The notes: generated by a model from the sequence alone, not told the origin. A stretch of 55,421 nucleotides of DNA from Clostridia bacterium (GCA_017481235.1 JAFUPL010000046.1:1-55421); one strand, 5' to 3'. Counted from the stretch's first letter, positions 4,985-53,806 are shown. A program made the numbers and translations.

Positions 4985-5085
4985 TTTGTTTATTCCTTAT
5001 TTATAATATAACATAATATTAAAAAATTTGTATACTAATTTAACAAAGTTTAAAAAATAGGAGAATGCGCTCTCCTACTTTATAA

Positions 5086-10730: not shown

Positions 10731-10750
10731 ACTCAAAAAAGTAAACCACT

Positions 10751-13671: not shown

Positions 13672-16600
13672 TTAACTTTGCTCTTCCCAAACATCTAATC
13701 CGTTTTTAGAGAATACTATATATTCTTGAGTATAACCAAAGGTCGAACTCCAATCATCATATTGAGACTTATCATACGCTATTATATACAAGAATATTGC
13801 TTTTAAATTATCATATTCAAAGTTGTTTGCTATAATATTCATTTTGTTTATAGGTTTAATTTGTTGTTGTTTGCTACCATCTATCAACGTATATCCTTCT
13901 CTTTCACTAGAGTCAAGACCACGTTTTAATGTTATAATCAACTTGCCTTGATAAATATAGTTTTGGTTGCCATCATCAACTTCAACTCCAATGCCACCAA
14001 TAGTTGAAACAAATGTTGAATCACTTAAACCTAATACCAAACCATATATTGCCGTTGCATTAACTAACCCATTATCAACATTTTCCATATATGAGGTATT
14101 AAATGAATAATAACTGCTTCTTTTAACAATAAATTTATTAATAAAACTTGTTTCAAGAGTATTGTTTGAATATAATGTTTCTGCACTATGAGACGGTTCA
14201 TTTACAAAACAATTTGACTCGTACACTGCCCCATTTTTAATGTTTTTATAAACATTTAATGTGTTTAAAGTTGCCACACCATAACTATTTTGTTGTTTGA
14301 TTATTGTAGAATATTTGTAATCTGTACCCACAATTCCTCCAACAAAGAAACCTTCCACACTTCCAGCAACCGAACAATTGTATACACTACCCTCAATGTT
14401 ACGTCCAACAATTCCGCCAATAGTTGCCAATGCTTGATTAGAAACAACATCAATATCACTAGAACAATTATCAATTAATCCGCCAATATTAAATCCAACA
14501 ATTCCGCCATTTACTCTTGCTGAATTATTAAAACAATTTGTTGTGTTTACGCGTTGTTTAACCCCTTCAACATAAGTGTAAGCGTATATCTTTGAACTTT
14601 GTATAATGCCACGGTTTTCACCAACCAAACCACCTGCGACATACACTCCTTGATATACTGTTTCGTCAGATAAATTGTAATTTACATCTTTAACTAATGT
14701 TCTTTCACCAACAAGTCCAAATGCTCCACCTACTGTTTCGCCAATAATTACTAAATCATTGTCAATATTAATGTTGCTAACTGTATAATAATAATTAATA
14801 TCTCTAACCAGTTTAGTCATGTTGTAACCGTCTACTATTCCTGCAAATGAACCAGCATAAGATACTTCATCAAGATTGTCTAACAAAGTATTTCCGCTAA
14901 CATTTTTACCCATATATAAATTATATTGAGTAGTTTGATTGTAGGCATACGTTGCAAACGCACTTACATTGCTAGTTATTCCCATTATTTCAAAACTTCC
15001 TTTAGCAATACCTACTAAACCACCTACCGCATTTTTACCTAATATTAGCAAATTGTTATTATCAATTGTTATATTGTATATATTTGCACTGTCAATTACA
15101 CCTGCCAACGCACCAACAGCATTACTTCCCGACGCCTTGATACTAGATGGTTGTAAAATCAAGTTACGAACATATACTCCTAATCCTAAATTGCCAATAT
15201 TGGAGAATAAACCAACACTTTCAACATCTTCAGTTTTGTAAATATTGTAATTTTTTAGTACCATATCATTGCCTTCAAAACTTGCTTTTAATATCTTATT
15301 AAATGTTGTTGGATTAGTATATTTACCCTCCGCTTCAAAGTCAATATCACGAACAAGACGGAAAGTTTTGCCTTCAATGGTATTGGTTGCAAGATTAGTA
15401 TTTAAATCAAAGAAATTTTCAAACGTTTCAACGTCATAAATATTGCAAATATTTTCATATTCGTTTTTGTTTGGATTAAACCCAGAATTTAAAAGTTGAG
15501 GTCCATTATTAGATATTGACCATACACCATATTCGCCATTTGCAAATATAAATCCATAGTACTTGCTTTGCAATGCTAATTCGCTAGGCATTACCAAAGT
15601 TAATCCACTTACATTAATATTAATGTCGTTGTCGGTGATTACATAACAATTAGTAATAGTTCCTATAGTATTGGTTACGTATATAAATCCGTTATAGAAC
15701 AAACTGCTTCCTAAAGTTGCATAAGCGTAACTATTGGAGATATTTCCTGTGCTTTGATATACAAAACCACCAATATTTCCTTGTGAAGAAAGTGAAGTTT
15801 GATTAATATAACAATTAGTGATAGTTCCCGCATTATTTAATACAAACCCTGCTGTTCTACCAACACTATGTATGTTATACGAACCAACTTTTATGCCACA
15901 TTGTACATAACTTAGTGATATATATGCACCATTTAAGTTTTGCACTACAAATCCCGCTGTTGTAATTTCGGCAACATATTGATTGCTGTCATTACTTTTA
16001 ATTGAACCTTTAAAGTTGGTATTGGTTATTTTGCCATAATTTGTGCCACTTACACCACCTATCAATGCCATAGCAGACATTTTTAGTTCAACGCTACTTC
16101 CAGTAATAGTTGCCACCTCTTTGCTATCTTGCGAACCATTTATTGCGGTTATACCACCCAAATCAATATATTGAGCACTTATATATTGTGCTTTAAGTGT
16201 AAATGCACCATATACTTTAACATTTGTGATAACGCCTAAATTTTGACCAGCAATTCCGCCAAAGTAGATATCGTTAGTGTGTTGTTGTTGAATAGATAAA
16301 CTATCATTTAAATTAACTTCTACAATTTCATCTCTATTGTTAACGTCTCTATATTCCACTTGTAAATTTTCAATTACACTATTTTCCGCTAATATACCAA
16401 ATAATCCAATGTACATTCCGCCTGAAATATAGTCTATTTCTAGTTGTGCAATATTAAAGTTTTTAATAGTAATTGTATTGCCATTACCTTTAAATCCGCC
16501 AATTGCTGTATTGATAGGAGTATAATCGATAAATGTTAAACTATCTACAATTTGATAATATCTGCCTTCCACCATATTTTCAAATTCTTGTTGCGAATTT

Positions 16601-19600
16601 ATAACTTCATATTCGATAAATGGTGTTGTTTTGGTAGTAACATCAAATCCAAATTGTTGTGTTAAAACTTCAACTTCGTTAGTTGTTAAAACTGGATAAA
16701 ATTCATATTCATATTTAAACTTAAATTGTACTATGAATTTCATATCATTGATATTAATAGAATTATCGTCTAAAGGTTGTTTTGCCTTAATTGTAAATCT
16801 ATAATTTTCGTTTACTATTGAAATAGTATCATCTTCATAACCATTATTAGTTAAAGGCGATAACTTGCTTATATCTGTTACATTGTTATTAACAAAGAAT
16901 ATATTTACCCCATCACTACCCAAAGTATTAAACGCCTTTAAGATATTGTTGATATATTCCATATCTGTTCTTAAAGCACCTTCATAATTATCTGGATTGG
17001 TTTTTTCTAATGTATAAGCAACATTCCAATAACCTTTGTAATAATATGAAATATCTGTTTTGTCAAAATAGAAGTATGTATTAAACGCTTCGTCCCAATT
17101 GCCATACACTTTGCCTTGTGAACTGGTTTGATACATGCTTACACCATGTACAACAAATCGTCTAATGTTAAACTTGATGGTTGCTCGACATGTTTCGGTT
17201 ATGCCATTCAAACTCTTTGACGCTGTAAAGTTAACGTTAATTTGCTTGCCTAGCAATTCGTCCCAACGACTTTGCTTACTTAAATCAAAAGTTAAAATAT
17301 ACTTACCATACACTTCTTCCAATCTTACAAAGTCACCATAAATACTAGTAACATCATTTAAGCCATTTGTAACCGTAATATAATTACTTAAACTACCTTC
17401 ATCAGTATTATCTGTCTTAATATCAATTCCCGCTTCAACGCCCAATGCAAGATCCACTGTTTTTTCTGCTGTTTGTGGCGCTACGCCATCGCTGGTATCC
17501 GCCACCACGGTTTTTCCATTAGGATAAGTGTATGTCATTTCAATTTTAGGATACATAACTGCTTCAAGATTTAAATATGATGAATTTAATTCATTGCCCG
17601 CTTTGTCGTATACCACAATGTGTATTGTATGAGTTATGTTTGCCATTGATTTACTAGGAAGTTTAGCAACAACGTATAGTGTAGATGCATTTACATCATG
17701 CTTGATTAATTTAATTCCGTTATCTGCCCAAATATCCATATTGTCAAGCAACACAAATCTTCCGTCATCTAACAATTTTACTTGTTGGAACAAAATCTTG
17801 TCTTCGCTGGTTATGTCCATAATCTTTATATGGTCATAAATCGCAATATTAGGAGCAATATCAATTGCAATAATATTGGTTTCGCCTGGACGAATTATCT
17901 TGCTTTGATAAGCATTATCTAACTTTATTTTATTTATATCATTTTGCTTATCTTCCATGCGATAATTAAGTGATATGACACTTGATATTGCTTGTGGTTT
18001 AACATTTATAAATACTGTAGTTGATATTTTGTTACTTCCATTATATACATACAAATCAAGTTGCAATCTATATGCGACATCAATATAGTATGACTGGTCG
18101 TTTAATTTTAACACTATAGTTGCTGTTTGTAACATATTATATATATCAATACCTGATATATCAAAATAATATTCCTTACTATCGTTATCATAAACAAGTT
18201 CTTTAACAATTGTAGTGTTATTATCAATATAATATAAACTTACATCAAGTGTATTAATCAAATCATTTCCGTTATTAGGATTTTGATAAATCTCACCCAC
18301 TGCTTCACGACTGATATAAAGTTTGTCCACTTGTACATCTGTTGTAACTTTTACATTCAACCTAGATTCTTTATCTGCTGGCATCATGTCTAATTGATTT
18401 TTGTTTACATTAACCGCACTTGCACCCTTTTTAGTTACCACGTTAAAACTCGTTTCAAAATTAGATAACTTAACTAAAATATCTTTTGAATAATTTCCAT
18501 TTTTATAACCTGCTACCACATATGGCGTTGCGGTTATTTCAAATTTGCCATCAACATACTGATTAACCGTAATTGTTATAGGTATTCCATATGGTATTCT
18601 ATATAAATATTTATCAACTATTGTAGTTGTATCTTTAGCGTCTATGATGTTTCCATGTGCGTCAAGGCGAATGTAATAATCTTGATTTAACGCAACATAC
18701 TTTGCTATATCTATAGGTAAAATTGTTTCCTTGCCACTATAGTCAATTTTAAATTCAATCAACATATTTGTAGCACTCTTATATTTGTATTCACGAGAAT
18801 GCTCGCCATATATAATTGAAGAATAATCTGCATAAATTATTTTGCTTGAATTTTTTACCACACTAATAGTTGTGTCATTGGTTATATTGTATTCATCTCT
18901 TAAATTAGCATTTGAATACAACTTAAAATTAAGCACTTGACTACGAACTATCACTACAAAACTTGCTGTTGCACTAGGATTTAAGGTTGACATTAATGTA
19001 ATAGTTGTTTGACCTTCACCGTTAAGCAATAATCTACCATTACTTAACACACTTGCAACACCAGCATTACTACTACGCAAATTGAAGCGCTTGTAAGTAT
19101 TTGGAAGCACAATAATTCCTTCACTTGATACAATATCTTTCATATCCACTATATTAAGGTAATTATAGTCGCTTACCGCAAATTCACCCGTCATATCACT
19201 TAATGGATAATAATACAATATCAACGCATGTTGACGATAATCACTTAAACTTGAACTGCTATCACCTGTTAATTCTAAATTTGCAAGTAGTGAATATCTA
19301 TCTTGATTAATATTATGTATACTAGGGTCATACTTAACATAATTTTCATCAACCTTAACGTAGTCACCTAACTTGTTTGGACGATACATTGCAGACCTAG
19401 TAAACGCTTGGTTGATTTGAATAACTGTAGGAATTACACTTACCAAACTAGTGCCGTCTTTGTAAACAACATAAGGTTTAGAATTGTTATATTGACTATT
19501 TACATTAAATCCATTTACTGGTGTGTTACTAGAAATTGTAGTTCCTTGATAATATCCGTCATCATTATTTAAAATTTGACCATATGATGAAGTATTTATA

Positions 19601-22600
19601 CCAATTTTGCCTTCACCGTTAACAATAGCATATATATTGTTGTAAGGAATATTAAAGATTAATTTTCCATCTTTAGCATACATCTTAGTAATTGAGTCAA
19701 GGTTATTTGAACTAATATTTGCGTCTATAACCCCATAGAAATATGCTGTGTATATTGCTCCAAAACACTCAAGTCGACCTATTATTCCGCTAACATTATT
19801 ACTTCCAGTTAAACTTACACTTGCAACGCTATTAACAACGCTAAGTGTTGGATCTGTATCTTTTTGTTTTTCAAAATAAGAGCTTCTAGATGATGTTCCC
19901 AAACCAATCAAACCGCCAACATTATTGATAGCTTCAATATCATACACTTGCACACTAGGTTGATAATTCCATGCAAAACTATTAGCATAACAATAATTTA
20001 ATGTGGTATCATTAGCATTACCAATTAAACCGCCTACATTGTCGTTACCTTTAATGCTTTGTTGAACTTGGTATATTTCATAATATACTTTTTCGTAAGT
20101 TCCATCTATATCATATCCTATAGCACCACCCACATTGTTATTGCCAATTACTTGTGCGTTGGAATAACTGTTAGTAACTTGATATTTAATACTTTTTTCA
20201 ATTGTAATTGTGTCTACCGCATTATGACTTGAATTTGGGTCACTTCTTGATGTTGTTATTACGTTAGTATTTTCAACACCTATATTTTTACCAATCAAAC
20301 CACCAATATTGTTAACAGTTAAAACGTTGGCACTATTATGACCCAAAATTTTTCCTGTAGAATAAACGTTAATCATTGTTCCATTCAATTGTTTAGTAGT
20401 TTCGTCAATACTTCCAACATTTTTGCCTATCACACCACCAATTGCACTATTATCTAAACTGTTATCTAAGTTATTAACATTTTCCACTTGAAGCACAATA
20501 TCCGCGGTTGCACCTTGCTTGTCGTAATATACATCATATTCAACTTTGTTCACATCGTCATCACCGCTAACAATTGAACTTGGAATATTTGCGCCTATCA
20601 ATTTTCCTTGATTTTCACCAATAACACCACCAAGTACCACTGTTGACGCGTTTGAGTTAGTTACATAAATATCTCCTTGAACACCTACTTGCTTAGTAAG
20701 TTTGGACATATCAATAGTTCCGTCACCTATGTTTAGCGCCACCATTGAACCTATGATATAGTTGTTGACATGGTTATTTGCATTAACTTTTCCACTAATT
20801 GTAATTGTTATATCTTTAATTAGCGCAGAGTTTTTACCAACAAGACCAATTAATATATCTATTAAGTCATCGTCAATATCTTTATTTGTCTTTGTTGAAA
20901 CATAATTAATATCTATATGGAAATCAATATTTTCTAGCACCGCTAATCCATCATCATTTGCATTTAAAACTTTAAACAATGCCGGATTACTTTCATTTAG
21001 CATAATTCCATAAATTGAAAATCTATTGTCAGAATTTTCACGTTCTTTGAAAGATGAAATTGTTCCGCTAAATTTATCAAAACTAATTGCTTTACCGTTT
21101 AAATCAATATCGTTTACTAAAGCATAGTGCTTTGTGATTTCACCATCAGTGTCAACGTCATTAGATATTTTTTCAAAATCACTGCCACTAGCAATTAAAT
21201 ACGGACTTGCGATACTTCCGTCACTTACAATTATATCAACCATAATATATGAAGAATTATTTTGAATGTACAACATAGTATTAAAGTAATTAGTTATTGT
21301 TAACAAACTTGCATTAAGTTGGTCTTTTGCCACAATTATTAATTTTGCCTTACCTGCACTGGTTGCTTTTAGCAATCCATTGTCATCAATAGTTGCAATG
21401 CTATTAATTTGATATCCCGATGTGCTACACACTATATATTCAACACCACTGAACGATACTTTACCTTTGGAAGATGTTGTGGTGGCATCAATTGTTATTT
21501 GTTCGCCTACTTTTAAATTAATATATCCGTTACCAGAACTAAAAGTATTAATATGAGTATTTAAAACTACTCGTTCACTTAAAATAGGTTCACTAACCTC
21601 GTAATTGCAATATATTGGATATTGAACTCCAAATTGGTTAATAGTGGCAATTATTCTTCCAGCAAGTATTCCATTTAATGTTTTTCTATTGCCAAAAGTA
21701 AATTCCGCACTAGCATTATTAGATGAAACTGTATAATCACAAATCCCATCACCAATTCCTGTTCCTGAAGCAATCCATTTAATATCTACATAATCTAATA
21801 TCGTTTCGCTATTATTGTTTAATTGTATATTTAATGTTTGTTGACCATATTCTTCTTTCAAATTTGAATTAGGAATACTATGATAATTGTACTTATACAA
21901 CATTGTACTATCAAAAGTTGCTGAAGTTAGAGGTTCGTACACGTATATATAAATAGTTTTTGGAATTTCTACTGATTCACCTTTGTTTAGTTTGTAATAT
22001 GAATAAGTATTTGCTTTGATTGTGTATGTTATGGCGACATAATTTTTAGTGTTAGTTTCAACATCAAACGAACCAATACTACTCGTTCGTATAATGTCAT
22101 TGCCATCAGCATCTTTCGATGGTAAATAATTTGCGTAACTTTTGTTGCTAGTTTTGGTAGGGTTATTTACCATAACTGCTGTAACCTCTTGCCCACTAGT
22201 ATTGACAAAATCAGAATTTGAAATATCTATATTTACTTTGTACTGATTTGATGTTGAAAGTATATATGTATTGTTTATATCCAAATCATCAATATCAACC
22301 TTTGTGTAATACAACTTGTTTGGATTAAATTCGTCACTAGATTTTACTTTAATATATTGACCACCAATACATTCGTAATAAGTAGTAGTACCCCAATCGT
22401 TTGGTTGTGTATTAAGTGGTTGATATTCGTATAGCAATCGCTCACCACTAAAGTCAGGGGCCGAAATTGTTACACTAACATCATTACCTTGCAACTGTTT
22501 ATATACTTTTACACCTATAGTGCTGATTGTTCTTGGTTTTCCATCTTCAGCACCTTGTGAAATGTCAATAAAATAGTCACCACATTGTATGTCACCTGTT

Positions 22601-24888
22601 TTGCCCAATATGATTACGTTTTCATACCCAGTGTAGTTGGAACTATCAAAATCAAATGGATAATTGTTTATGTACTTAAGACCTTCGCCATAGTTTGAAT
22701 ACTTTGCAAAACCAATATTTACATTTTGAATAGATATATTTAAACCAATTACTTCAAGTTCGTCAGCAGTAAGAATAGTTCCATTTAAACCCAACACATC
22801 ATATATACGTATACCATAAAAAGTTTGATTATTATCAAGCATATTAGGTTGGAAATAAAATTGCCAATCATTTCCCGCATCAGTTGGAACTTCTGACACT
22901 TCGCCATTGTTGGTAGTTATCATAATAGGTTCATATGATATGCTTTCAACCGTTCTTTGACGTTCAAAACTTAAATTATAAGTTATACAAGTTTTGTCAA
23001 AACCATGATTTTTAATATTATAACTTTGGTCATACACATTTTTAATCACTATACCAAAATTACCTATTTCCTTAGTGCCGGTAGTTTTAAGCCATTTCAT
23101 ATATATGGTATCTTGGATTTTTAAGCGCTCAGACACAAAATTGTCGCCATCTACGGTAAACGTAATTTCTCTACCGTCTTTTAGTATTGCTATTTGATAA
23201 TTACCTTTTTCAAGTCCAGTTAAATCAGCGTCACTACCATTACTAGTTTTAATATAATCGCTTCTTGTATTATCAATTTGATAATATTTGCCCGAAACGA
23301 AGTTTGGACACTCATTATCGTAAACTTGTACATACTCTTTACTTGTGTTGTTATACGTATAGTAAGATTTCCAATTGTCACTCCAATCATTTGGTTGACT
23401 ATCTAATCGAGTATAATTAAATTTAATGCGTAATAGATGCTTATTAATTGTGATTGTATAATACTTAAGCGCACTTAGTGTATTGGTGCTAAGTATATCA
23501 AATTTAAATGCTTGTCCTAACGAATTTGAATCATTTAAAGCAGTTGTACTTTTAAATGTATAATCATCTTCCTCTTCCTTTTCAACTTCAATCTTTTGAC
23601 CATTATTAGTTGCTTTAAAACTGGTAGCACGCTCACCTACTGTGCAAGGAATGTTTATAGTAAATTCCTTAATATCCCCTACGCACGCTTTAGGAACAAA
23701 GTCCACTTTGATATATCCGCTACCAACACATGTACTAGTAGCAATTGCCCTTATACTACCAAAGTTTTTAGTTTCAAGTCGTAAAGCATCTATATCTGTA
23801 CTAATATTAATTTCATACAATTCGCTAAATTTTGGATTAACTTGACTTAACGACTTTAAAATAGTTGCTGGAATGCCTTCACCTTGTATATCGTTTTCAA
23901 CGCTAAGTTTAAAGTCAATCAACGCCGTACTATAATAGTCATATTCATATCTGCTTTGGTTTAACTCACGAGGTTTGTGCTCATCTGGATTGCTAATTAA
24001 AACTAAATCTTCCAATACATCATTATCATTTCCATGAGTGGTACTTGATACTACAATATCATCACTTTTCAACAAATCCGCAATACACACTTCAATTTCA
24101 ACATTATGTAAAGTTGCTTCACCTTTTAGCGCCGAAACTGGATTAATAGTTATGGTTGAGTTACGGTCATAATTACTAGCAATTTCAATCACGCTTTTTA
24201 CTGCTTCGGTAGTTCCTTTGCTTGAATCTTGAGGATTAGGAGTAAACACTGCTGTTTGGTTGTTACTTTTATCATAAGACACAACATTAATACCGCTAGG
24301 CAAATCCGTACCTTTAATTCGCCACAAAATTGTATCAGTGTAATTTTCAGGTTGACAATTTAATAATTTTTTGGTTGGAATTTCAATTCGCTTTACTACA
24401 TTACTTGCAATTTCGTCTTCGGTAAATTGTGGCGACTCAACTACAAAATCTAAGTTGGCACTTTCAACCGTTTGCAACTTACGACCAATATTCAATGGAA
24501 CACTAAAACTTTTGCCCGAACCTAAATGCGTGATTACCAAACTTGCACCTTCACCCGTTGGTTGCAAAGCCGAAACAAGAACTTCGCAATTATTTCCATC
24601 AATTATATGTTGAGTAGTAACTAATCCCGAAGGGTTGGATTCAATACTAATGTCGCCCCAAGATTTCGCACCATCTAATTCAAAATTTATAATTTGATGT
24701 GACAAACATGAACTCATCAACTCCTCGCCACCATTACATTTGCAATACGAATCCAAATCTAAAACTAGATTAATTTGTTCAACACTACATTCAATTTTTA
24801 AATCCTTATATCCGTCATTACAACTACAAAAAACAATGCTTGACACAAGCACCAAAAGCGTAGCAAATAATAATGATAATTTTTTCAT
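13672..24888 (-). CDS. giant (3738 aa) secreted or lipid-anchored surface protein with Big_2-like Ig domains and many GLUG-type repeats
   Basis: Signal peptide MKKLSLLFATLLVLVSSIVFCSC. Big_2-like segments, for example KVGEQITIDATTTSS...LLKATSAGKAKLIIVAKD. Repeated GG(L/V/I/A)IG motifs (NIGGLIGKNIG, NVGGLIGNAND, LGGVIGENQG, VGGAIGYD, AGGLVGENRG). No LPXTG motif at the C-terminus. Confidence 0.8.
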   Translation of the reverse strand: MKKLSLLFATLLVLVSSIVFCSCNDGYKDLKIECSVEQINLVLDLDSYCKCNGGEELMSSCLSHQIINFELDGAKSWGDISIESNPSGLVTTQHIIDGNNCEVLVSALQPTGEGASLVITHLGSGKSFSVPLNIGRKLQTVESANLDFVVESPQFTEDEIASNVVKRIEIPTKKLLNCQPENYTDTILWRIKGTDLPSGINVVSYDKSNNQTAVFTPNPQDSSKGTTEAVKSVIEIASNYDRNSTITINPVSALKGEATLHNVEIEVCIADLLKSDDIVVSSTTHGNDNDVLEDLVLISNPDEHKPRELNQSRYEYDYYSTALIDFKLSVENDIQGEGIPATILKSLSQVNPKFSELYEINISTDIDALRLETKNFGSIRAIATSTCVGSGYIKVDFVPKACVGDIKEFTINIPCTVGERATSFKATNNGQKIEVEKEEEDDYTFKSTTALNDSNSLGQAFKFDILSTNTLSALKYYTITINKHLLRIKFNYTRLDSQPNDWSDNWKSYYTYNNTSKEYVQVYDNECPNFVSGKYYQIDNTRSDYIKTSNGSDADLTGLEKGNYQIAILKDGREITFTVDGDNFVSERLKIQDTIYMKWLKTTGTKEIGNFGIVIKNVYDQSYNIKNHGFDKTCITYNLSFERQRTVESISYEPIMITTNNGEVSEVPTDAGNDWQFYFQPNMLDNNQTFYGIRIYDVLGLNGTILTADELEVIGLNISIQNVNIGFAKYSNYGEGLKYINNYPFDFDSSNYTGYENVIILGKTGDIQCGDYFIDISQGAEDGKPRTISTIGVKVYKQLQGNDVSVTISAPDFSGERLLYEYQPLNTQPNDWGTTTYYECIGGQYIKVKSSDEFNPNKLYYTKVDIDDLDINNTYILSTSNQYKVNIDISNSDFVNTSGQEVTAVMVNNPTKTSNKSYANYLPSKDADGNDIIRTSSIGSFDVETNTKNYVAITYTIKANTYSYYKLNKGESVEIPKTIYIYVYEPLTSATFDSTMLYKYNYHSIPNSNLKEEYGQQTLNIQLNNNSETILDYVDIKWIASGTGIGDGICDYTVSSNNASAEFTFGNRKTLNGILAGRIIATINQFGVQYPIYCNYEVSEPILSERVVLNTHINTFSSGNGYINLKVGEQITIDATTTSSKGKVSFSGVEYIVCSTSGYQINSIATIDDNGLLKATSAGKAKLIIVAKDQLNASLLTITNYFNTMLYIQNNSSYIMVDIIVSDGSIASPYLIASGSDFEKISNDVDTDGEITKHYALVNDIDLNGKAISFDKFSGTISSFKERENSDNRFSIYGIMLNESNPALFKVLNANDDGLAVLENIDFHIDINYVSTKTNKDIDDDLIDILIGLVGKNSALIKDITITISGKVNANNHVNNYIIGSMVALNIGDGTIDMSKLTKQVGVQGDIYVTNSNASTVVLGGVIGENQGKLIGANIPSSIVSGDDDVNKVEYDVYYDKQGATADIVLQVENVNNLDNSLDNSAIGGVIGKNVGSIDETTKQLNGTMINVYSTGKILGHNSANVLTVNNIGGLIGKNIGVENTNVITTSRSDPNSSHNAVDTITIEKSIKYQVTNSYSNAQVIGNNNVGGAIGYDIDGTYEKVYYEIYQVQQSIKGNDNVGGLIGNANDTTLNYCYANSFAWNYQPSVQVYDIEAINNVGGLIGLGTSSRSSYFEKQKDTDPTLSVVNSVASVSLTGSNNVSGIIGRLECFGAIYTAYFYGVIDANISSNNLDSITKMYAKDGKLIFNIPYNNIYAIVNGEGKIGINTSSYGQILNNDDGYYQGTTISSNTPVNGFNVNSQYNNSKPYVVYKDGTSLVSVIPTVIQINQAFTRSAMYRPNKLGDYVKVDENYVKYDPSIHNINQDRYSLLANLELTGDSSSSLSDYRQHALILYYYPLSDMTGEFAVSDYNYLNIVDMKDIVSSEGIIVLPNTYKRFNLRSSNAGVASVLSNGRLLLNGEGQTTITLMSTLNPSATASFVVIVRSQVLNFKLYSNANLRDEYNITNDTTISVVKNSSKIIYADYSSIIYGEHSREYKYKSATNMLIEFKIDYSGKETILPIDIAKYVALNQDYYIRLDAHGNIIDAKDTTTIVDKYLYRIPYGIPITITVNQYVDGKFEITATPYVVAGYKNGNYSKDILVKLSNFETSFNVVTKKGASAVNVNKNQLDMMPADKESRLNVKVTTDVQVDKLYISREAVGEIYQNPNNGNDLINTLDVSLYYIDNNTTIVKELVYDNDSKEYYFDISGIDIYNMLQTATIVLKLNDQSYYIDVAYRLQLDLYVYNGSNKISTTVFINVKPQAISSVISLNYRMEDKQNDINKIKLDNAYQSKIIRPGETNIIAIDIAPNIAIYDHIKIMDITSEDKILFQQVKLLDDGRFVLLDNMDIWADNGIKLIKHDVNASTLYVVAKLPSKSMANITHTIHIVVYDKAGNELNSSYLNLEAVMYPKIEMTYTYPNGKTVVADTSDGVAPQTAEKTVDLALGVEAGIDIKTDNTDEGSLSNYITVTNGLNDVTSIYGDFVRLEEVYGKYILTFDLSKQSRWDELLGKQINVNFTASKSLNGITETCRATIKFNIRRFVVHGVSMYQTSSQGKVYGNWDEAFNTYFYFDKTDISYYYKGYWNVAYTLEKTNPDNYEGALRTDMEYINNILKAFNTLGSDGVNIFFVNNNVTDISKLSPLTNNGYEDDTISIVNENYRFTIKAKQPLDDNSININDMKFIVQFKFKYEYEFYPVLTTNEVEVLTQQFGFDVTTKTTPFIEYEVINSQQEFENMVEGRYYQIVDSLTFIDYTPINTAIGGFKGNGNTITIKNFNIAQLEIDYISGGMYIGLFGILAENSVIENLQVEYRDVNNRDEIVEVNLNDSLSIQQQHTNDIYFGGIAGQNLGVITNVKVYGAFTLKAQYISAQYIDLGGITAINGSQDSKEVATITGSSVELKMSAMALIGGVSGTNYGKITNTNFKGSIKSNDSNQYVAEITTAGFVVQNLNGAYISLSYVQCGIKVGSYNIHSVGRTAGFVLNNAGTITNCYINQTSLSSQGNIGGFVYQSTGNISNSYAYATLGSSLFYNGFIYVTNTIGTITNCYVITDNDININVSGLTLVMPSELALQSKYYGFIFANGEYGVWSISNNGPQLLNSGFNPNKNEYENICNIYDVETFENFFDLNTNLATNTIEGKTFRLVRDIDFEAEGKYTNPTTFNKILKASFEGNDMVLKNYNIYKTEDVESVGLFSNIGNLGLGVYVRNLILQPSSIKASGSNAVGALAGVIDSANIYNITIDNNNLLILGKNAVGGLVGIAKGSFEIMGITSNVSAFATYAYNQTTQYNLYMGKNVSGNTLLDNLDEVSYAGSFAGIVDGYNMTKLVRDINYYYTVSNINIDNDLVIIGETVGGAFGLVGERTLVKDVNYNLSDETVYQGVYVAGGLVGENRGIIQSSKIYAYTYVEGVKQRVNTTNCFNNSARVNGGIVGFNIGGLIDNCSSDIDVVSNQALATIGGIVGRNIEGSVYNCSVAGSVEGFFVGGIVGTDYKYSTIIKQQNSYGVATLNTLNVYKNIKNGAVYESNCFVNEPSHSAETLYSNNTLETSFINKFIVKRSSYYSFNTSYMENVDNGLVNATAIYGLVLGLSDSTFVSTIGGIGVEVDDGNQNYIYQGKLIITLKRGLDSSEREGYTLIDGSKQQQIKPINKMNIIANNFEYDNLKAIFLYIIAYDKSQYDDWSSTFGYTQEYIVFSKNGLDVWEEQS

Positions 24889-24920: not shown

Positions 24921-25200
24921 TTATATTTTTATATAATATTATTATAATATTTTAAATCAAAATAGTCAAACCATTTATTAATTAAAACTACAAAAAAATC
25001 GCCAATTTTAAAATATTAAAATTAATTAAATTTAAAATCTTTAAAAAAAAATAAATAAATTTTAAATTAAATCATTTTTATAACTTTTTGCTTAAAATAA
25101 GCGTATTTTTATTGTTTTTATTAATTTTATTTAATTTTTGATAATTTATTTTATTTATTTTTGAATTATTTTTTAATTTAAAATTTGTCCGTTTTTAATT
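24921..25200. other. extreme-AT spacer in the divergent region between the giant gene and the lipoprotein operon
   Basis: About 280 nt that are almost devoid of G/C. It shares short blocks (TTGCTTAAAA, AGCGT(T)ATTTTTATT) with the spacers at 33856-34053 and 54638-54807. Confidence 0.5.
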
Positions 25201-28872: not shown

Positions 28873-28937
28873 CAAATTTAATTAAATATTGTATTATTTT
28901 AATATTGTATTTATGCTAAAAGTGTTATTTTAACAAA

Positions 28938-28965
28938 ATTCTATCCATTGTAGATAGAATTTTTT
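28938..28965 (+). terminator. intrinsic terminator after gltX
   Basis: ATTCTATC-cattgta-GATAGAAT followed by TTTTT. Confidence 0.75.
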
Positions 28966-28990
28966 ATTAAATCAATTTTTAAAAACCCTA

Positions 28991-30155: not shown

Positions 30156-32771
30156 TTAGTCAACTTTGTACCAATACACATCTGCGGTTAGCAATGCCGT
30201 TGCATTGGCACTACTTATGTCAGTTGTAAGTCCTTCAACTTCCGCACCATTGGTGTATCCATTCCAATCAGTTTCACTAGCAACCGTAAACCATGTGCTA
30301 GTATCTCCAAATTTAGCATTAACAAGTCCACTACCGCTAAATACATTTGTACCCATTTGAGTTACGCTTGCTGGGATAGTTACACTGGTTAAACTATAAC
30401 AATTATAAAAAGCACCATTTCTTATTGTTGTTAAACCGTTTGGCAAAGTTATACTTGCCAAACTTTTGCAATAATTAAATACATATGTTCTAATTATTTT
30501 TAATGTTGTTGGTAATTTTATATTTGATAAATTCGTACAACTACCAAACATATAATCATTTAAATATTCTAAACTTGTACCACTTAAATCAATACTTACA
30601 AGACCACATCCATTAAATACGCTGCCACCAGTATGTGTTAATTGTGAACATCTACTCATATCAACATTTATTAGATTAGTACAAGTATGGAATGCCGACC
30701 CAGCAATATAAGTCAAACTACTAGGCAATATAACACTAGTAAGTTGTGTACAACTATGGAATGCACCTGTACTTATATTTGTTAAACTTGTACAAGCACT
30801 TAAATCAACACTTGTTAATGACGCAAAGTCCTTAAATGCATTTTCGCCAATATTTTGCAATCCAAGTGGGAACTTAATACTTTCCAATGTTGTAGGGAAA
30901 ATTCCCGAAGGAATAGTAGTAATACTTGTATCGGTTAAATCAATTTCCTTTAAACTACTATAACTTGTAAACGCACCATCACTAATAGTAGTTAAAGTTT
31001 GAGGCAACTTAATACTTTGCAAACCAGTAGCACCCAAATCACCAATAGTAGCAATCTTAGTCCCACTCAAATCAATGTTGGTTAAACCAGGTATATAAAA
31101 AGCGTTAAATTCAATTGTAGTTAAATTTGTATATTTACTTAAATCTAAATTAAATAAGTTTGTACCAGAAAATGCAAAAGTTCCTATAGTTATTATATTT
31201 TTAGGTAAAATAATATTTGATAATTTAGCACAACCTTCAAAAGTATAAGTTTTTATTTGGGTTAAATTATCACAACTATTTAAGTTTATGCTGGTTAATT
31301 CCATACAACCTGAAAAGGCGTATTCCCCAATATTATTCACAGTAGATGGAATTATCACACTAATCAAACTAGAACAACCTGAAAAGGCATTATTTCCTAT
31401 CTCAGTTAAGTTTGCACACTTACTTAAATCAATATTTTTTAAGAACATACAATTAGAAAAAGCATAATCACCTATAGTTGTTACATTGTTCAAATTTGAT
31501 ATATTGGTTAAACTTGAACAACCCATAAATGCATTGTCGTCTATAGTTGTAACACTATATGGAAGAAGTACAGTAGTTAAACTTGTACAACCCATAAATA
31601 TTGAATCGCCAACAGTTTGCAACTTTAAACAATTACTTAAATCAATTTCTAACAATCCTTCACATTCATGGAACGCATATGTTGAAATTGTAGTTAAATT
31701 TTTACAATTACTTAAATCCAAACTAGTCAAATTATAATTTCTCATAAACGCATTAGCATTTATAGTTGTTAAATCTACACAACTTGAAACATCAACATTT
31801 GTAAGGGTATTGCCAAAAAATGCACTTTCACCTATTGTTGTAATAGTTGAAGGCAAATTCACACTAGTAAGACCCCCACTTATAAAAGCTTGATTTCCAA
31901 TACCAGTAACTGGCGCTTCGCCATTTGTGCCATCATCATATATTGTTGGTATTACTAAATCGGCAATGCCAGGATCATCTGTTACACTATAACTTCCATT
32001 GCTATAGGTCATACAACTGGTTGAATTTAGTGGGAAGTTATGGAAACGGGCAAATAGTGGTTCGCCTTGGGTTTCGCGTGGAAAGGTAGCAAGTTTAGTA
32101 AAGTTTTCGTCCAAGAACCATGCGTCAAAGTTGTAGCCTGTAGGCGCGGTTGGTGTTGCTGGTTCTGGCAAATCTTGACCTTTAACAATAGTTTCGGTTG
32201 TGGTTACGCCATTGACGGTGTAACTAATTGTGCCCGCATTACCAAAGTTCCAAGAAATAGTTGTAGTAAAGTTAAGTGGAAGAGTTGCATCACTTGGAGA
32301 TACAAGCACGTAAATATAAATATCCGCGTCCTTAGTGTCGATAGTTTGAGCCTCAAACTTAGTTTGCGAAGTTGTTGTGCTATCAAAAGTTAGCGGAGTG
32401 CTTGAATACACATAACTAATATCAACACCTTCAATTTCTTGCATTGATTGCAAGGTTACCGCCATAGTTTGTTCTACGTTGCTAGGTCTACCAAATATAT
32501 ATTCATACGCCTTAACTGTAGCGGTATTCTCCGTAGCCATAGAACTTGGCATATAGTTAAAATCAATTGTTGTTTGATTTGTTCCAACCAATTCGATTTG
32601 ACCCGCTTGATAGGTGTAAGTGGTAGGTTTTTGCACATTTCCCTTATCCAATGCTGGAGTTGTAGGAGTTGAATTATCTGTTTTTTGAATGCAAATAATA
32701 CCTGTAACAAGCGCAACAAGCATTGCTACAAATACACTTACACTTAATATGATTTTCTTTTTTATACCCAT
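30156..32771 (-). CDS. BspA-type leucine-rich-repeat surface protein, paralog 1 (871 aa)
   Basis: N-terminal signal-anchor helix and a beta-rich domain. PTAPTGYNFDAWFLDENFTKLATFP is a Listeria-Bacteroides/InlB B-repeat-like segment. Then many repeats of the type IG..AF..C..LTSI.LP.S(L/V)T.I. Confidence 0.8.
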   Translation of the reverse strand: MGIKKKIILSVSVFVAMLVALVTGIICIQKTDNSTPTTPALDKGNVQKPTTYTYQAGQIELVGTNQTTIDFNYMPSSMATENTATVKAYEYIFGRPSNVEQTMAVTLQSMQEIEGVDISYVYSSTPLTFDSTTTSQTKFEAQTIDTKDADIYIYVLVSPSDATLPLNFTTTISWNFGNAGTISYTVNGVTTTETIVKGQDLPEPATPTAPTGYNFDAWFLDENFTKLATFPRETQGEPLFARFHNFPLNSTSCMTYSNGSYSVTDDPGIADLVIPTIYDDGTNGEAPVTGIGNQAFISGGLTSVNLPSTITTIGESAFFGNTLTNVDVSSCVDLTTINANAFMRNYNLTSLDLSNCKNLTTISTYAFHECEGLLEIDLSNCLKLQTVGDSIFMGCTSLTTVLLPYSVTTIDDNAFMGCSSLTNISNLNNVTTIGDYAFSNCMFLKNIDLSKCANLTEIGNNAFSGCSSLISVIIPSTVNNIGEYAFSGCMELTSINLNSCDNLTQIKTYTFEGCAKLSNIILPKNIITIGTFAFSGTNLFNLDLSKYTNLTTIEFNAFYIPGLTNIDLSGTKIATIGDLGATGLQSIKLPQTLTTISDGAFTSYSSLKEIDLTDTSITTIPSGIFPTTLESIKFPLGLQNIGENAFKDFASLTSVDLSACTSLTNISTGAFHSCTQLTSVILPSSLTYIAGSAFHTCTNLINVDMSRCSQLTHTGGSVFNGCGLVSIDLSGTSLEYLNDYMFGSCTNLSNIKLPTTLKIIRTYVFNYCKSLASITLPNGLTTIRNGAFYNCYSLTSVTIPASVTQMGTNVFSGSGLVNAKFGDTSTWFTVASETDWNGYTNGAEVEGLTTDISSANATALLTADVYWYKVD

Positions 32772-32824
32772 ATCTTATCCCCCGCAATTATTACAAAAAA
32801 TAACAATTGTCCCTTAATACATTT

Positions 32825-32853
32825 ATTTTAACAATTTCCTTTATAAAAGTCAA
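32825..32853 (-). promoter_or_regulatory. conserved extended -10 promoter of LRR gene 1
   Basis: Minus strand reads TTGACT (32853-32848), 17-nt spacer ending in TGT, then TAAAAT (32830-32825). The same layout occurs at 39629-39657 and 52673-52701. Confidence 0.6.
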
Positions 32854-32879
32854 AACATTTGTAATAGTTTTTGCTATTT

Positions 32880-32886
32880 TGTCGAA
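32880..32886 (+). promoter_or_regulatory. perfect Spo0A-box heptamer TGTCGAA, 26 nt upstream of the LRR-1 -35 element
   Basis: The exact heptamer sits in ATTTTGTCGAAAAATATTT. Confidence 0.45.
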
Positions 32887-32974
32887 AAATATTTAACCAA
32901 ATTCACACATACAAAACTTATTATGTTTGCAAGGTCAACATGTTGATATATTTAAAACATTATCCTATTGAATG

Positions 32975-33042
32975 GGCGAAGCGCGCAACCACGTTGCACA
33001 AAATGCGAATGCATTTCAAGAAACTATTGTTTCTGCTTCGCC
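32975..33042. other. 68-nt four-way-junction (mini-cloverleaf) element, copy A
   Basis: Closing stem GGCGAAGC/GCTTCGCC (32975-32982 with 33035-33042). Hairpins GCAAC-cac-GTTGC (32985-32997), AAATGC-gaat-GCATTT (33001-33016) and AGAAAC-tatt-GTTTCT (33019-33034). Confidence 0.7.
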
Positions 33043-33255
33043 ACAAATCATACAATTGAACATGGTATATGCCTAAAATAAAAAATTAAGCGAATTAATC
33101 ACTTAATTTATCATTTATTTAATTTTGTAATATTAAAACTCATAGCATGCCAACGATTTGATTAATTATCTATAATATTAATTGCTATATTTAACCTTTA
33201 AGCCAGATACATTCCACTCCCAACTAATGTCGCTCGGTCGGTATGACATAAGACT

Positions 33256-33855
33256 TTACTTAGTTTCGTCCAAATATGTTGCCATCATATCCGCGGTATG
33301 AAAAATCATTGCATTAGGAAACTTGTAATACGCGTCCGCCAAACCATATGAACCGCCTCGCACTCTATCGTCAAAACCGCCTCCATGCCAATTGATTGCC
33401 ATCGCTTCTTCGCGAGTAAGTTTGATAAAACTTCCCACAATATACACCGACTTTTCACCATGACCATAAGGCAATCTATCTTCAATGCTATAATATGGAA
33501 CTTGTATCCATTGCCCATCAACCTTTACATTGCGGTAATCAACCTTGTAAAAATCTACCTTACACACATCATGCAAAAGTGCAATAATTGCCACACTTTC
33601 CATTGAAATTTTACTAGTAAAATCATCACCGTATTCCATAGTCAAAAGTCGAACATAGCGGTCAAAAACTTTTAAACTATGCTCACACAATCCACCCTCA
33701 AACGCCGAATGGAATTTGCTTGATGCTGGCGCGGTAAAAAAGTCGCTATTAATCAACCAATCCAACAAATTGCCCGCACCCTCACGCGTGATATATTTAT
33801 TAAAAATTTCAATAAATTTTTCTTGATTTTCTTCCAATTCTTTTTCGTCTAACAT
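33256..33855 (-). CDS. HD-domain phosphohydrolase
   Basis: 199 aa. H...HD pattern (FHSAFEGGLCEHS, ALLHDVCK, GHGEKS, NWHGG, HTADMMA). Confidence 0.7.
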   Translation of the reverse strand: MLDEKELEENQEKFIEIFNKYITREGAGNLLDWLINSDFFTAPASSKFHSAFEGGLCEHSLKVFDRYVRLLTMEYGDDFTSKISMESVAIIALLHDVCKVDFYKVDYRNVKVDGQWIQVPYYSIEDRLPYGHGEKSVYIVGSFIKLTREEAMAINWHGGGFDDRVRGGSYGLADAYYKFPNAMIFHTADMMATYLDETK

Positions 33856-34053
33856 AATTTTTTCCTATTTTAAATATTTTTTTATTTGCCTAATTTATTT
33901 TAATAATTATTTTTAATTTTATTTAATCGCATGTATTTAAATATTTTTTATATTTATTTTTTTATATTTATTTAATTTTATTTTGAAAACATTGCTTAAA
34001 AATAGTATTTTATTTAAATAATTTTATTTTTTTATTATTTTTAAAATTAAACA
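33856..34053. other. extreme-AT spacer between hisS and the HD-hydrolase gene
   Basis: About 200 nt that are nearly free of G/C. It shares an exact AAAATAATTATTAAAA 16-mer (in inverted orientation) and the TTTGCCTA block with 54638-54807, and TTGCTTAAAA with 24921-25200. Confidence 0.5.
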
Positions 34054-35292
34054 TTATTTAAATTTTCTAATTTCAAAATCATTCATATTAATATAACCAT
34101 CAAAGTTTGCAAACTTTAATTTTTCTAACATCGAGTTCATATTTTTAGGTCTTAAATATGTTGATACAGCATATCTATCCATCAAAACTTGCTTTTTATC
34201 CAGCACTCTTGTGTACGAGTCTTCCTTATCATAAATTAGTGCAATTTTCAGTTTATCTTTTTTCATTTTGCCTTGCTCACTTAGTATGATTAACACGCGT
34301 TCAAATCCAATCGAAAAACCAACCGCTGGAACATCAATTCCAATAAGTTTGCCAACCATTTTGTCGTAACGACCGCCACCACCAATAGCACCTTTAAATC
34401 CTTCGGCATATGCTTCGTAAATTGTGCCAGTGTAGTAACCTTGACCACGAATAATTGATAGGTCAAATTCACATTTTGCTTTATATCCTACAACCTCGTT
34501 AACGGTGTTAATAATTGTTTGGATATCTTCAATGTCTTTAGCGTCCGCGCCATATTTAATCGCCTTACATAGCCCACCAAGTTTAATATCCTCAATTGCG
34601 TCCATTAATTTAGATGTATAGATTGTTTGGCAAGTCTTTTGTGCAATTTCTTCCTCAACCCCACTAATGCCAATCTTGTCAAGTTTATCTAGCGAGATAC
34701 ATATTGAGTTGATATCTTCATCTTTAAATCCACAATGTTTAATGATAGAGTTCAATATCTTACGACTGTTCACCTTTATAGTTACATATTCAAGTCCAAG
34801 ACTAATAAGGGTGTTGATTGATGTAAGTATAATCTCAGTTTCCGCATTGATGCTACTATCACCAAATATATCAATGTCGCATTGGATAAATTGACGATTA
34901 CGTCCCTTTTGTGGACGCTCCGCCCTAAATGAATGCCCAATTTGGATTGCCTTAAATGGATTAGGTAATTTTTCACGATTGCATGCGTAAAACCTAGCAA
35001 GAGGCACGGTAAGGTCGTAACGTAAACCCTCTTCCACAATATCCTTTTCACATAGATTTGGTTTGGTTAAATCAAGTTTGTCACCACGCTTAATTGTCTT
35101 AAACATAAGGCGAAGATTATCCCCACCTTCACTACTATCAAGTAACGACAAATTTTCAAGTATTGGCGTTTCAATCAATGTAAATCCATTGTCTTGATAA
35201 CTACGCAATATCTTTTGCTTAATAATCTCACGATTTTCCGCCTCAATTGGAGGATAATCATATGTCCCACGTACGGGCGTAACTACTTTCAT
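34054..35292 (-). CDS. hisS: histidine--tRNA ligase
   Basis: 412 aa. RGTYDYPP, motif 2 FRAERPQKGRNRQFIQCDIDIFG, and motif 3 GGGGRYD. Confidence 0.92.
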   Translation of the reverse strand: MKVVTPVRGTYDYPPIEAENREIIKQKILRSYQDNGFTLIETPILENLSLLDSSEGGDNLRLMFKTIKRGDKLDLTKPNLCEKDIVEEGLRYDLTVPLARFYACNREKLPNPFKAIQIGHSFRAERPQKGRNRQFIQCDIDIFGDSSINAETEIILTSINTLISLGLEYVTIKVNSRKILNSIIKHCGFKDEDINSICISLDKLDKIGISGVEEEIAQKTCQTIYTSKLMDAIEDIKLGGLCKAIKYGADAKDIEDIQTIINTVNEVVGYKAKCEFDLSIIRGQGYYTGTIYEAYAEGFKGAIGGGGRYDKMVGKLIGIDVPAVGFSIGFERVLIILSEQGKMKKDKLKIALIYDKEDSYTRVLDKKQVLMDRYAVSTYLRPKNMNSMLEKLKFANFDGYINMNDFEIRKFK

Positions 35293-39628: not shown

Positions 39629-39657
39629 ATTTTAACAATTTGAATATGATTTGTCAA
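39629..39657 (-). promoter_or_regulatory. conserved extended -10 promoter of LRR gene 2
   Basis: Minus strand reads TTGACA, 17-nt spacer ending in TGT, then TAAAAT. Confidence 0.6.
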
Positions 39658-39693
39658 AACTTTTTTAACACTTTGCAATATTTTTCCCAAATT

Positions 39694-39751
39694 TGTCGAA
39701 ATTTATTTGTTTTGACACTAATATATGCGACAAAATCTACCCATTACGACA
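39694..39751. promoter_or_regulatory. cluster of three Spo0A-type boxes in the LRR-2/addB divergent region
   Basis: TGTCGAA is on the plus strand at 39694-39700. TGTCGCA (39732-39726) and TGTCGTA (39751-39745) are on the minus strand, each preceded by TTT. Confidence 0.4.
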
Positions 39752-52672: not shown

Positions 52673-52701
52673 ATTTTAACAATTTACTTTTTATTTGTCA
52701 A
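52673..52701 (-). promoter_or_regulatory. conserved extended -10 promoter of LRR gene 3
   Basis: Minus strand reads TTGACA, 17-nt spacer ending in TGT, then TAAAAT. Confidence 0.6.
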
Positions 52702-52737
52702 AGAATTTACAATATGTTTATATATTTTTTGTAAATT

Positions 52738-52744
52738 TGTCGAA
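52738..52744 (+). promoter_or_regulatory. perfect Spo0A-box heptamer TGTCGAA, 36 nt upstream of the LRR-3 -35 element
   Basis: AAATTTGTCGAAATTTATTT is identical over 20 nt to the LRR-2 box region at 39690-39709. Confidence 0.45.
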
Positions 52745-52759
52745 ATTTATTTATAAAAC

Positions 52760-52837
52760 GGCGCGAATTGCACGCATTATGCGTGCGGATTGCAAAAGCA
52801 ATCCCCAAATTTTGCAATACAAAATTTAATTCGCGCC
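52760..52837. other. 78-nt perfect four-way-junction (mini-cloverleaf) element, copy B
   Basis: Closing stem GGCGCGAATT/AATTCGCGCC (10 bp). Hairpins GCACGCA-tta-TGCGTGC, GGATTGC-aaaa-GCAATCC and AAATTTTG-caata-CAAAATTT. All 32 pairs are Watson-Crick. Confidence 0.75.
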
Positions 52838-52872: not shown

Positions 52873-52900
52873 AAAAAAAACTAAGCAAGTGCTTAGTTTT
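52873..52900 (-). terminator. intrinsic terminator of sigG (overlaps the stop codon)
   Basis: Minus strand reads AAAACTAAG-cacttg-CTTAGTTTT followed by TTTT. Confidence 0.75.
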
Positions 52901-53672: not shown

Positions 53673-53806
53673 AACCAACTCCTAAGCGTATTGTTTGCTT
53701 TGCAAAAATTTTTATACCCAAAAATTGTAAAACTCTAAATTTTGACAACATAAGTTATATTCAAACATTTAATTACTTTTTTTTATTTCTTTTACATGTT
53801 TAAATT

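Follow-up and report, generated by a model that had tools for sequence, protein, structure and literature searches.

Several kinds of folded element are known from the spaces between bacterial genes. Intrinsic (Rho-independent) terminators, tandem and back-up terminators included, canonically consist of one hairpin with a loop of 3-8 nt; the GC-rich closing helix has an arbitrary sequence with a fast turnover, stands after a co-directional gene and is followed by a U tract, a defining feature of the class. REP and BIME elements, MITEs and other small palindromic repeats are GC-richer intergenic palindromes whose presence varies between close relatives and which are able to act as RNA-decay barriers or terminators; they form multi-copy consensus families, often with a cognate transposase. 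The attC sites of integrons are defined by their folded single strand and not by their sequence, vary in length, are in some cases branched and adjoin exchangeable genes. Their marks are R and L core boxes (GTTRRRY), extrahelical bases, imperfect pairing and a position 3' of the cassette ORF, and they depend on an integron integrase. The 5' mRNA stabilisers of Firmicutes (leaders of the ermC/aprE type) are simple hairpins at the very 5' end, and long structured leaders that stabilise mRNA have been described for other Firmicute surface-protein genes. Replication template switching, finally, is a documented route by which perfect stems arise in one step (PMC8794818).

The element described here, element A, is located in a chromosomal segment of 55,421 nucleotides (the window), which has a GC content of 31% and encodes an HD-domain protein 97% identical to one in an Onthoplasma MAG (Christensenellales). 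Element A folds into a perfect four-way junction between the HD gene and LRR-1, a gene for a BspA-type leucine-rich-repeat surface protein. A second such junction, element B, precedes the paralogous gene LRR-3 in the window, and four more were found in other loci. We file these junctions as hairpin-type intergenic structural elements in branched four-way form, which come closest to intrinsic terminators and REP-type decay barriers in the way they would work and belong to neither class.

With intrinsic terminators the junctions share the GC-rich closing helix, the arbitrary sequence and the place after a co-directional gene; B and the junctions at loci L064 and L071 also have a T run, and plain terminators occupy the same places in congeners. 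The helix of element A is stable and GC-rich, its 8-bp closing stem (GGCGAAGC/GCUUCGCC) closing a fold of -34.6 kcal/mol. A U tract just 3' of the helix is present in B and missing from A, as it is from the junctions at L019 and L130, and both A and B lie behind another, complete terminator. Moreover, the closing stem of A does not belong to a single unbranched hairpin with a short loop; the "loop" of the junctions consists of three hairpins in a linker-free four-way arrangement. Like the REP-type families, the junctions are GC-richer intergenic palindromes whose presence varies between close relatives; they differ in that each is unique in sequence. A second copy of A, of B or of the ~290-bp insert that contains A was found neither in the window nor in 1.4 Mb of related loci nor in viral, phage and plasmid collections, and A shows no target-site duplication and the ORFs of the window no transposase. 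With attC sites the junctions have in common that the fold and not the sequence defines them and that exchangeable genes adjoin them, but the attC marks are all missing: core boxes (RYYYAAC ... GTTRRRY) are absent from the stem ends of A, the pairing is perfect and no integrase is encoded in the window. The 5' stabilisers resemble the junctions in being stable structures upstream of a surface-protein gene, and the L130 junction, and probably that of L019, does lie in a 5' leader; A and B instead lie upstream of a conserved promoter. Template-switch hairpins likewise have perfect stems, appear suddenly in one lineage and are unrelated to one another in sequence (PMC8794818), but template switching accounts for one stem at a time; a closed set of four perfect helices, nested or side by side, would call for several events or for selection.

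A tRNA cloverleaf has D, anticodon and T loops of 7-8 nt and conserved nucleotides, whereas the loops of A measure 3-4 nt; ARAGORN and Rfam identified two tRNA-Leu genes elsewhere in the window and none at A or B. Rfam gave no match, either at the gathering score or at E<=10, to A (32700-33300), to B or to the other four junctions. As to an inverton, the 8-bp inverted repeats of A flank 52 bp of palindromes that contain no promoter, the window has no recombinase and all assemblies show A in one orientation. A riboswitch, an attC site, an inverton, a retron ncRNA and a single-strand initiation site were each considered and dropped because their defining features are missing, there being no conserved junction nucleotides, core boxes or internal promoter and no reverse transcriptase or integrase nearby. 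In the literature searched, neither terminators in the form of a branched four-way junction nor elements of this kind ahead of LRR genes were found to be described.

Two four-way junctions between terminators and LRR promoters

The closing stem of element A (Table 1) comprises 8 bp (GGCGAAGC/GCTTCGCC, 32975-32982 with 33035-33042) and encloses three hairpins that together span 52 nt: GCAAC-cac-GTTGC (32985-32997), AAATGC-gaat-GCATTT (33001-33016) and AGAAAC-tatt-GTTTCT (33019-33034). On the minus strand, a U.G pair extends the first to 32983-32999 and a G.U pair the second to 33000-33017, and 0-1 linker nucleotides remain at the junction. These pairings had been proposed from the sequence alone; all are present, and the minimum-free-energy and centroid structures computed by RNAfold both consist of exactly this four-way junction. 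The fold of the minus strand, which is the gene strand, has an energy of -34.6 kcal/mol (z -6.15) and that of the plus strand -30.8 kcal/mol (z -5.06); none of 200 shuffles was as good in either case. With DNA parameters the z-scores were similar (-6.05 and -4.82), and the structure is almost strand-symmetric. The GC content of A is 48.5%, compared with 28.9% in the surrounding spacer.

Element B has the same architecture, with a 10-bp closing stem and hairpins of 7, 7 and 8 bp, and folds with -43.7 kcal/mol (z -7.46). The similarity between the sequences of A and B does not exceed that of shuffles, and the two cannot be aligned. The sequence-only reading was thus right in describing a second element of like architecture without sequence identity. 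Taken together, the elements have a GC content of 45-49% in spacers of 26-29%. In both, G.U pairs lengthen the helices on the gene strand only, which is 3-4 kcal/mol more stable; this asymmetry amounts to three wobble pairs versus none, which is not significant, and the L019 junction prefers the opposite strand. Behind the closing stem of B follows the U-rich sequence GUUUUAUAAAUAAAUUU (also given as GUUUUAUAAAU), and B was flagged by a terminator scan. The same scan was silent on A, the 3' side of which, CAUUCAAUAGG (also given as CAUUCAAU), has no U tract, as the earlier reading had noted.

A string scan of the window for perfect closing stems of at least 7 bp enclosing at least three perfect hairpins of at least 5 bp, with at least 75% of the interior covered, returned exactly two sites, A and B, whereas 60 dinucleotide shuffles gave a mean of 0.017. 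LRR-2, the third LRR paralogue, has no such element, again in agreement with the earlier reading. AT-rich matches of a looser scan (4985-5047, 25022-25070, 28876-28972 and 33982-34124) were rejected as low-complexity chance pairings.

Table 1. Coordinates of features in the window and of junctions at other loci (positions with a locus name refer to that locus, all others to the window)
Feature	Position	Strand	Details
hisS	34054-35292	minus	
HD gene	33256-33855	minus	weak HD domain (Pfam HD, E 7.5e-4, below gathering score); upstream of A and co-directional
Segment of ~290 bp	32969-33259	minus	present here, absent from L002/L004 (spacer alignment)
Terminator of HD gene	33078-33112	minus	AU-rich, intrinsic; AAUUAAGUG-AUUAAUU-CGCUUAAUU then U6AU4; RNA -13.6 kcal/mol, z -4.64
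Sigma-70-like match	33047-33075	minus	weak; TAGGCA-17-TATGAT, 9/12 matches; +1 would be the first G of A
Element A	32975-33042	minus	perfect four-way junction, 68 bases; listed pairing, RNAfold and string scan
Spo0A-box-like motif	32880-32886	plus	TGTCGAA (consensus), in the conserved promoter block
LRR-1 promoter	32825-32853	minus	conserved; TTGACT-17-TAAAAT with extended TG; downstream of A
LRR-1	30156-32771	minus	BspA-type LRR surface protein, N-terminal membrane anchor; Pfam LRR_5, 6e-119
Terminator of sigG-like gene	52877-52900	minus	canonical; 10-bp hairpin and U8; ~30 nt upstream of B
Element B	52760-52837	minus	second perfect four-way junction; fold and string scan; between sigG-like gene and LRR-3
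L064 junction	L064:4872-4982		directly after polA stop; 12-bp closing stem then TTTTTATT; upstream of the promoter of a membrane-anchored SLT-domain gene
L071 junction	L071:313-409		plus strand: followed by TTTTTG; minus strand: 13 nt after putative spmB-like stop, upstream of a gene starting MKKNFKL
L019 junction	L019:12177-12247		87 bp upstream of an N-terminal-anchor gene; downstream of a perfect TTGACT-17-TATAAT promoter
L130 junction	L130:1412-1500		outer helix extends to 1392-1520; between sigG-like gene and BspA-type LRR gene

The genes around A, namely hisS, the HD gene (whose protein has no NCBIfam match) and, after a spacer of 484 bp, LRR-1, are all on the minus strand. The terminator of the HD gene lies upstream of A, separated from it by ~35 nt, and the same layout is found at B: a gene stop, a terminator composed of a hairpin and a T run, a gap of 30-35 nt, the junction and the conserved LRR promoter. 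The order that had been claimed for both elements, after a co-directional gene and before a TGTCGAA box and an LRR promoter, is thereby borne out. The promoter block, made up of the TGTCGAA box and, ~30-40 nt downstream, TTGAC(T/A)-17-TAAAAT with an extended TG, is common to the three LRR paralogues (32825-32890, ~39640-39720 and 52673-52750) and to congeners (loci L002, L004 and L005), and it is downstream of both A and B. Spo0A may bind to the TGTCGAA motif, and the shared block suggests that the LRR adhesin family is under common, possibly sporulation-linked, control. The distance from the element to the box is ~87 nt for A and 14 nt for B. Promoter-like matches upstream of A or B are no commoner than in shuffles, and the candidate -10 box of B is poor.

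Two smaller claims of the earlier reading fared less well. The order of loop sizes is indeed common to A and B, but it does not characterise the class, the other junctions having loops of, for example, 4,4,4, 4,3,3 and 6,3,6 nt. A perfect 12-nt palindrome, TCAACATGTTGA, is present at 32935-32946, where congeners have the terminator of the HD gene; it carries little weight, since a sequence of this length and composition should by estimate contain ~30 of its kind.

Seven loci from four ENA assemblies, on ~5 distinct contigs, carry element A and its flanks with 100% identity over 561 nt; for B, 331 nt including the flanks are identical in four contigs of ENA and Logan assemblies. Since independent metagenome assemblies of the same species agree, A and B are not assembly artefacts. 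Independent assemblies do break at or near A: the end of contig L085, at 33014, falls within the middle hairpin, and contigs L001 and L088, which stem from one sample, overlap by exactly k=141 at 33229-33369. These breaks hint at strain heterogeneity or at graph tangles caused by the palindromes.

Three other ORFs of the window, all on the minus strand, deserve mention. The sigG-like ORF (52899-53678) yields 259 aa from a TTG start, compared with 257 aa in its homologues and in an exact-match record, and its true start is probably at 53672. A 444-aa ORF (9402-10736) matches a single Pfam family at E<=1e-3, the Rho RNA-binding domain (E 2.5e-7), and no ATPase-domain match was listed. A giant ORF of 3738 aa (13672-24888) has a marginal match to Big_2 (bacterial Ig-like) only and is probably another very large surface protein.

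Orthologous loci in congeners

The nearest relatives available are congeners with 76-85% nucleotide identity to the window in the flanking core genes. In the spacers between the HD and LRR genes of L002 and L004, element A is absent; a plain hairpin with a T run directly follows the HD stop and is in turn followed by the conserved promoter block, of which ATATTTTTCGACAAAATAGCAAAAACTATTACAAATGTTTTGACTTTT is identical in the window and L002 in the spacer alignment. The segment of ~290 bp that distinguishes the window from these loci begins at the HD stop codon and ends 6 nt past A, where the common sequence AATAGGATA resumes, and no target-site duplication is seen at its junctions (33259/32969). 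DNA similar to this insert or to the spacer of B was sought by BLAST against the window and all loci, with exact patterns in viral contigs and by BLAST against phages and plasmids, and only self-matches were returned, as was the case for the short open frames of the insert in tblastn. In L005 the LRR gene is missing at the HD locus.

At the other locus, L184, which belongs to the same MAG as L002, retains the gene order spoIIGA, sigG-like gene, LRR gene, M14 peptidase gene. In the place of B it has a canonical terminator and, behind it, ~60 nt that lack structure (fold z -0.75) and close with a T7 run. The congeners L174-L183, in which the sigma protein is 89-91% identical, have neither B nor its LRR gene. 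A metagenome scan with the sigG-like protein for diverged copies found nothing closer than 68%. By this comparison A and B are species-specific, and since their copies within the species are 100% identical there is no covariation to score.

The sequence-only reading had explained the likeness of A and B by compensatory evolution of one conserved structure, an explanation that it held to be refutable by orthologous loci lacking the structure. Such loci were found for both spacers: A is lacking in L002 and L004, B in L184, and B together with its LRR gene in L174-L183. No evidence for homology of A and B was found, and unless homology is shown, the same fold without sequence identity at two loci of one genome does not imply compensatory evolution. 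The claim of conservation and compensatory evolution is thus refuted on its own terms, and A and B make better sense as two independent elements, each young and confined to its lineage.

The neighbouring LRR genes vary strongly. A search with the N-terminal domain of LRR-3 retrieved two proteins, one of which, that of L184, occupies the orthologous slot in a congener. This slot, between the sigG-like gene and the M14 peptidase gene, is hypervariable: the products of 49746-52628 in the window and of L184:2054-3403 measure 960 and 449 aa and share 44% amino acid identity over the N-terminal 260 residues, compared with 76-82% identity of the flanking genes at the DNA level. LRR-1, too, is absent from L005 and L002 or has another gene in its place.

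Junctions of the same form at other loci

The window and loci collected around homologues of the HD and sigG-like genes, ~1.4 Mb after deduplication, were scanned with RNALfold for closed multiloops that had three or more branches and in which no fewer than 72-78% of the bases were paired. Four further perfect four-way junctions were identified in related Clostridia (Table 1), each unique in sequence, all in low-GC genomes and all intergenic. A relaxed descriptor that allowed mismatches and G.U pairs returned mostly tRNAs and GC-rich coding noise, missed true members and was left out of the counts. The loops of the junctions measure 3-6 nt and have no motif, the linkers 0-2 nt, and MAFFT was unable to align the six, which have no sequence signal in common. 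At the orthologous positions of the four additional junctions the junction is absent, its place being taken by a simple terminator, by nothing or by different genes; at L064, the alignment with the orthologue fails over little more than the junction. In 956 kb of low-GC sequence, identical thresholds gave six four-way junctions, two three-way junctions and none of higher order with simple hairpin branches. With such numbers the four-way form cannot be regarded as the tail end of a range of stacked hairpins. L060:2096-2163, the one clean three-way counterpart, consists of a 12-bp closing stem and two perfect hairpins and has a tRNA gene nearby.

Every one of the six junctions lies between genes, in sequence of which the non-coding share does not exceed 23%. 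Five (A, B, L064, L130 and L019) have a co-directional upstream gene; at L071, where we take the upstream gene to be spmB-like, this holds on the minus strand only, and the T run is on the plus strand. A GC-rich closing stem leads directly into a T run in three (B, L064 and L071), the remaining three lacking a U tract, and the L064 junction is the only terminator-like structure after polA. At L130 the promoter TTGACG-17-TATACT precedes the junction, and the ribosome-binding site of the LRR gene follows closely behind it.

The downstream co-directional gene encodes a protein with a K/R-rich and then hydrophobic N-terminus in all five cases that could be evaluated, compared with a base rate of 16.8% among 1088 ORFs under the same crude rule. 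Without A and B, which had given rise to the idea, the count is three of three (p ~0.005, post hoc and with small n). Three of ~10 BspA-type LRR genes in the window and the non-duplicate loci (eleven with L184) have a junction within 300 bp upstream, namely LRR-1, LRR-3 and that of L130. L130 is a distant relative in which sigG-like gene, four-way junction and BspA-type LRR gene follow one another as at B, and it lends independent support to a link between junctions and LRR genes. The junction architecture thus recurs sporadically and seems to be linked to surface-protein genes, a lead of modest interest.

Two repeats of another kind were observed in these loci. L032 contains two related copies of a two-hairpin element (L032:1768-1851 and L032:6237-6305), in which the first hairpin (CTCCCCCT...AGGGGGAG) and the 3' sequence GGGGTGTTTGAC are conserved and the second hairpin shows compensatory changes (CAGCC-GTAT-GGCTG versus TCGGC-GATTA-GCCGA). 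It has no Rfam match and appears to represent a genuine family of repeats or ncRNAs that shows covariation. Between the sigG-like gene and the LRR promoter of L130 there is a direct repeat (L130:1114-1134 and L130:1265-1285, GATAAAAAGTGGCTAAGCCAC and GATAAAAAGTGCCTAAGGCAC), each copy of which forms a small hairpin, with a compensatory G<->C swap.

Possible roles of element A

Loops, junction and stems are arbitrary in sequence, which leaves only shape and stability as the basis of any function; that of A, if it has one, is most likely purely structural. The explanation that we prefer, tentatively and without regarding it as probable, is that A is a young, species-specific palindrome cluster that serves as a structure-only barrier to transcription or RNA decay, a back-up terminator or insulator behind the terminator of the upstream gene. 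Its perfect stems probably arose by replication template switching rather than by stepwise compensatory substitution. RNA polymerase that passes the weak AU-rich terminator of the HD gene would transcribe A, and the transcript, or a single DNA strand, would fold into the very stable perfect four-way junction. The folded junction might help to stop or pause transcription or might block 3'->5' exonucleases, and would in either case fix where the upstream transcript ends and keep the regulated LRR-1 promoter insulated. The fold, its significance, its place between a terminator and a promoter, its absence from congeners and the recurrence of its architecture are shown; transcription of A, an effect on termination or RNA protection and an advantage to the cell are inferred.

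Support for a barrier comes from the location of the junctions where congeners have single plain terminators, from the common layout of A and B between terminator and LRR promoter, from the co-directional upstream genes and intergenic positions of the junctions as a group, and from the closing stems with T runs of B, L064 and L071, that of L064 being the sole terminator candidate after polA. Loops and sequences are as unconstrained as in terminators, and in A and B the G.U pairs confined to the gene strand make it the better-folding one. The excess of four-way over three-way forms argues for an architecture that is selected or physically favoured and against a random pile of hairpins. A terminator or insulator is a plausible candidate role that fits B, L064 and L071, with their U tracts, better than A. 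Our confidence in the barrier is low because A lacks the U tract, because A lies behind another terminator and so may rarely be transcribed, because the L130 junction and probably that of L019 lie between promoter and ribosome-binding site, where a terminator would silence the gene, and because the congeners manage without A.

Alternatively, A may have no function and represent a neutral or nearly neutral product of template switching or quasi-palindrome correction, or filler of the ~290-bp insertion, that is tolerated in the spacer between terminator and promoter. We consider this the most serious rival and only slightly less likely than the barrier. It would account for the absence of all six junctions from every orthologous locus examined, for the distance of only 6 nt between A and an indel junction, for the nature of the unalignable segment at L064 and for the complete lack of variation within the species; perfect stems and unique sequences, moreover, suggest a recent one-step origin (PMC8794818). 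Arguing against it are the several coordinated events that four nested perfect stems require, the predominance of four-way over the simpler three-way junctions, the GC content of the elements, well above that of their spacers, and the confinement of all six to intergenic sequence together with the N-terminal anchors or signals encoded by the downstream genes.

A role in RNA at the 5' side of LRR-1 is improbable. In this model an upstream promoter of its own would make A the structured 5' end of a long LRR-1 leader, protected against 5' decay, and B, with its U tract, might give an ~80-nt RNA closed at both ends. The sigma-70-like match would place the transcription start at the first G of A, the junctions of L130 and L019 do follow strong or perfect promoters, junctions are associated with genes for exported or anchored proteins, and the structured leaders of other Firmicute surface-protein genes provide a precedent. 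The promoter common to the LRR paralogues and the congeners is, however, downstream of A and B, the promoter-like matches upstream of them are weak and at shuffle frequency, and the L064 and L071 junctions also lie upstream of the nearest promoter-like site.

Still less probable is an action at the DNA level, in which A would be extruded as a cruciform or cloverleaf and recognised by junction-binding or recombination proteins, marking or promoting the exchange of hypervariable surface-protein cassettes. Breakpoints do occur at the elements, A forming the right edge of the ~290-bp insertion, B lying where the alignment with L184 stops and the L064 junction lying on an indel; the neighbouring LRR genes are hypervariable; the folds are about as significant with DNA parameters; and the strands are nearly symmetric. 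Extruding such a structure from duplex DNA is, on the other hand, energetically demanding, and neither a recombinase, an integrase, a transposase nor a reverse transcriptase is encoded in the window. Target-site duplications and repeated copies are missing as well, and other LRR loci vary without any junction. That A and B are two members of a conserved structured-RNA family kept in shape by compensatory substitutions, as first proposed from their identical architecture without sequence identity and their similar context upstream of paralogous LRR genes, is very improbable in view of their absence from the orthologous loci of congeners, the lack of an Rfam match even at E<=10, the lack of conserved junction or loop nucleotides, stems without the mismatches and wobbles typical of old RNAs, the unequal distances to the promoter block and the zero variation with which covariation might be backed.

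Returning to the structural barrier, a broader proposal can be formulated for all six junctions, which we put forward as a long shot. They might constitute a structure-defined, sequence-independent class of perfect four-way junctions in low-GC Christensenellales-like Clostridia, arising de novo in individual lineages and kept by preference directly ahead of genes whose products are exported or membrane-anchored surface proteins, above all the hypervariable BspA-type LRR adhesins, where they would act as a new branched insulator against transcription or RNA decay or as a junction-shaped DNA site for the turnover of surface-gene cassettes. If the junctions are functionless, template switching or insertion can yield RNA-like architectures with z-scores of -6 to -7, and comparative-genomics screens could mistake such products for conserved ncRNAs. 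If they are functional, a branched, linker-free four-way junction would be a sequence-free intergenic structural signal that replaces the simple hairpin in bacteria, and this signal would be tied to the fast-evolving surface-adhesin loci of poorly studied gut Clostridia.
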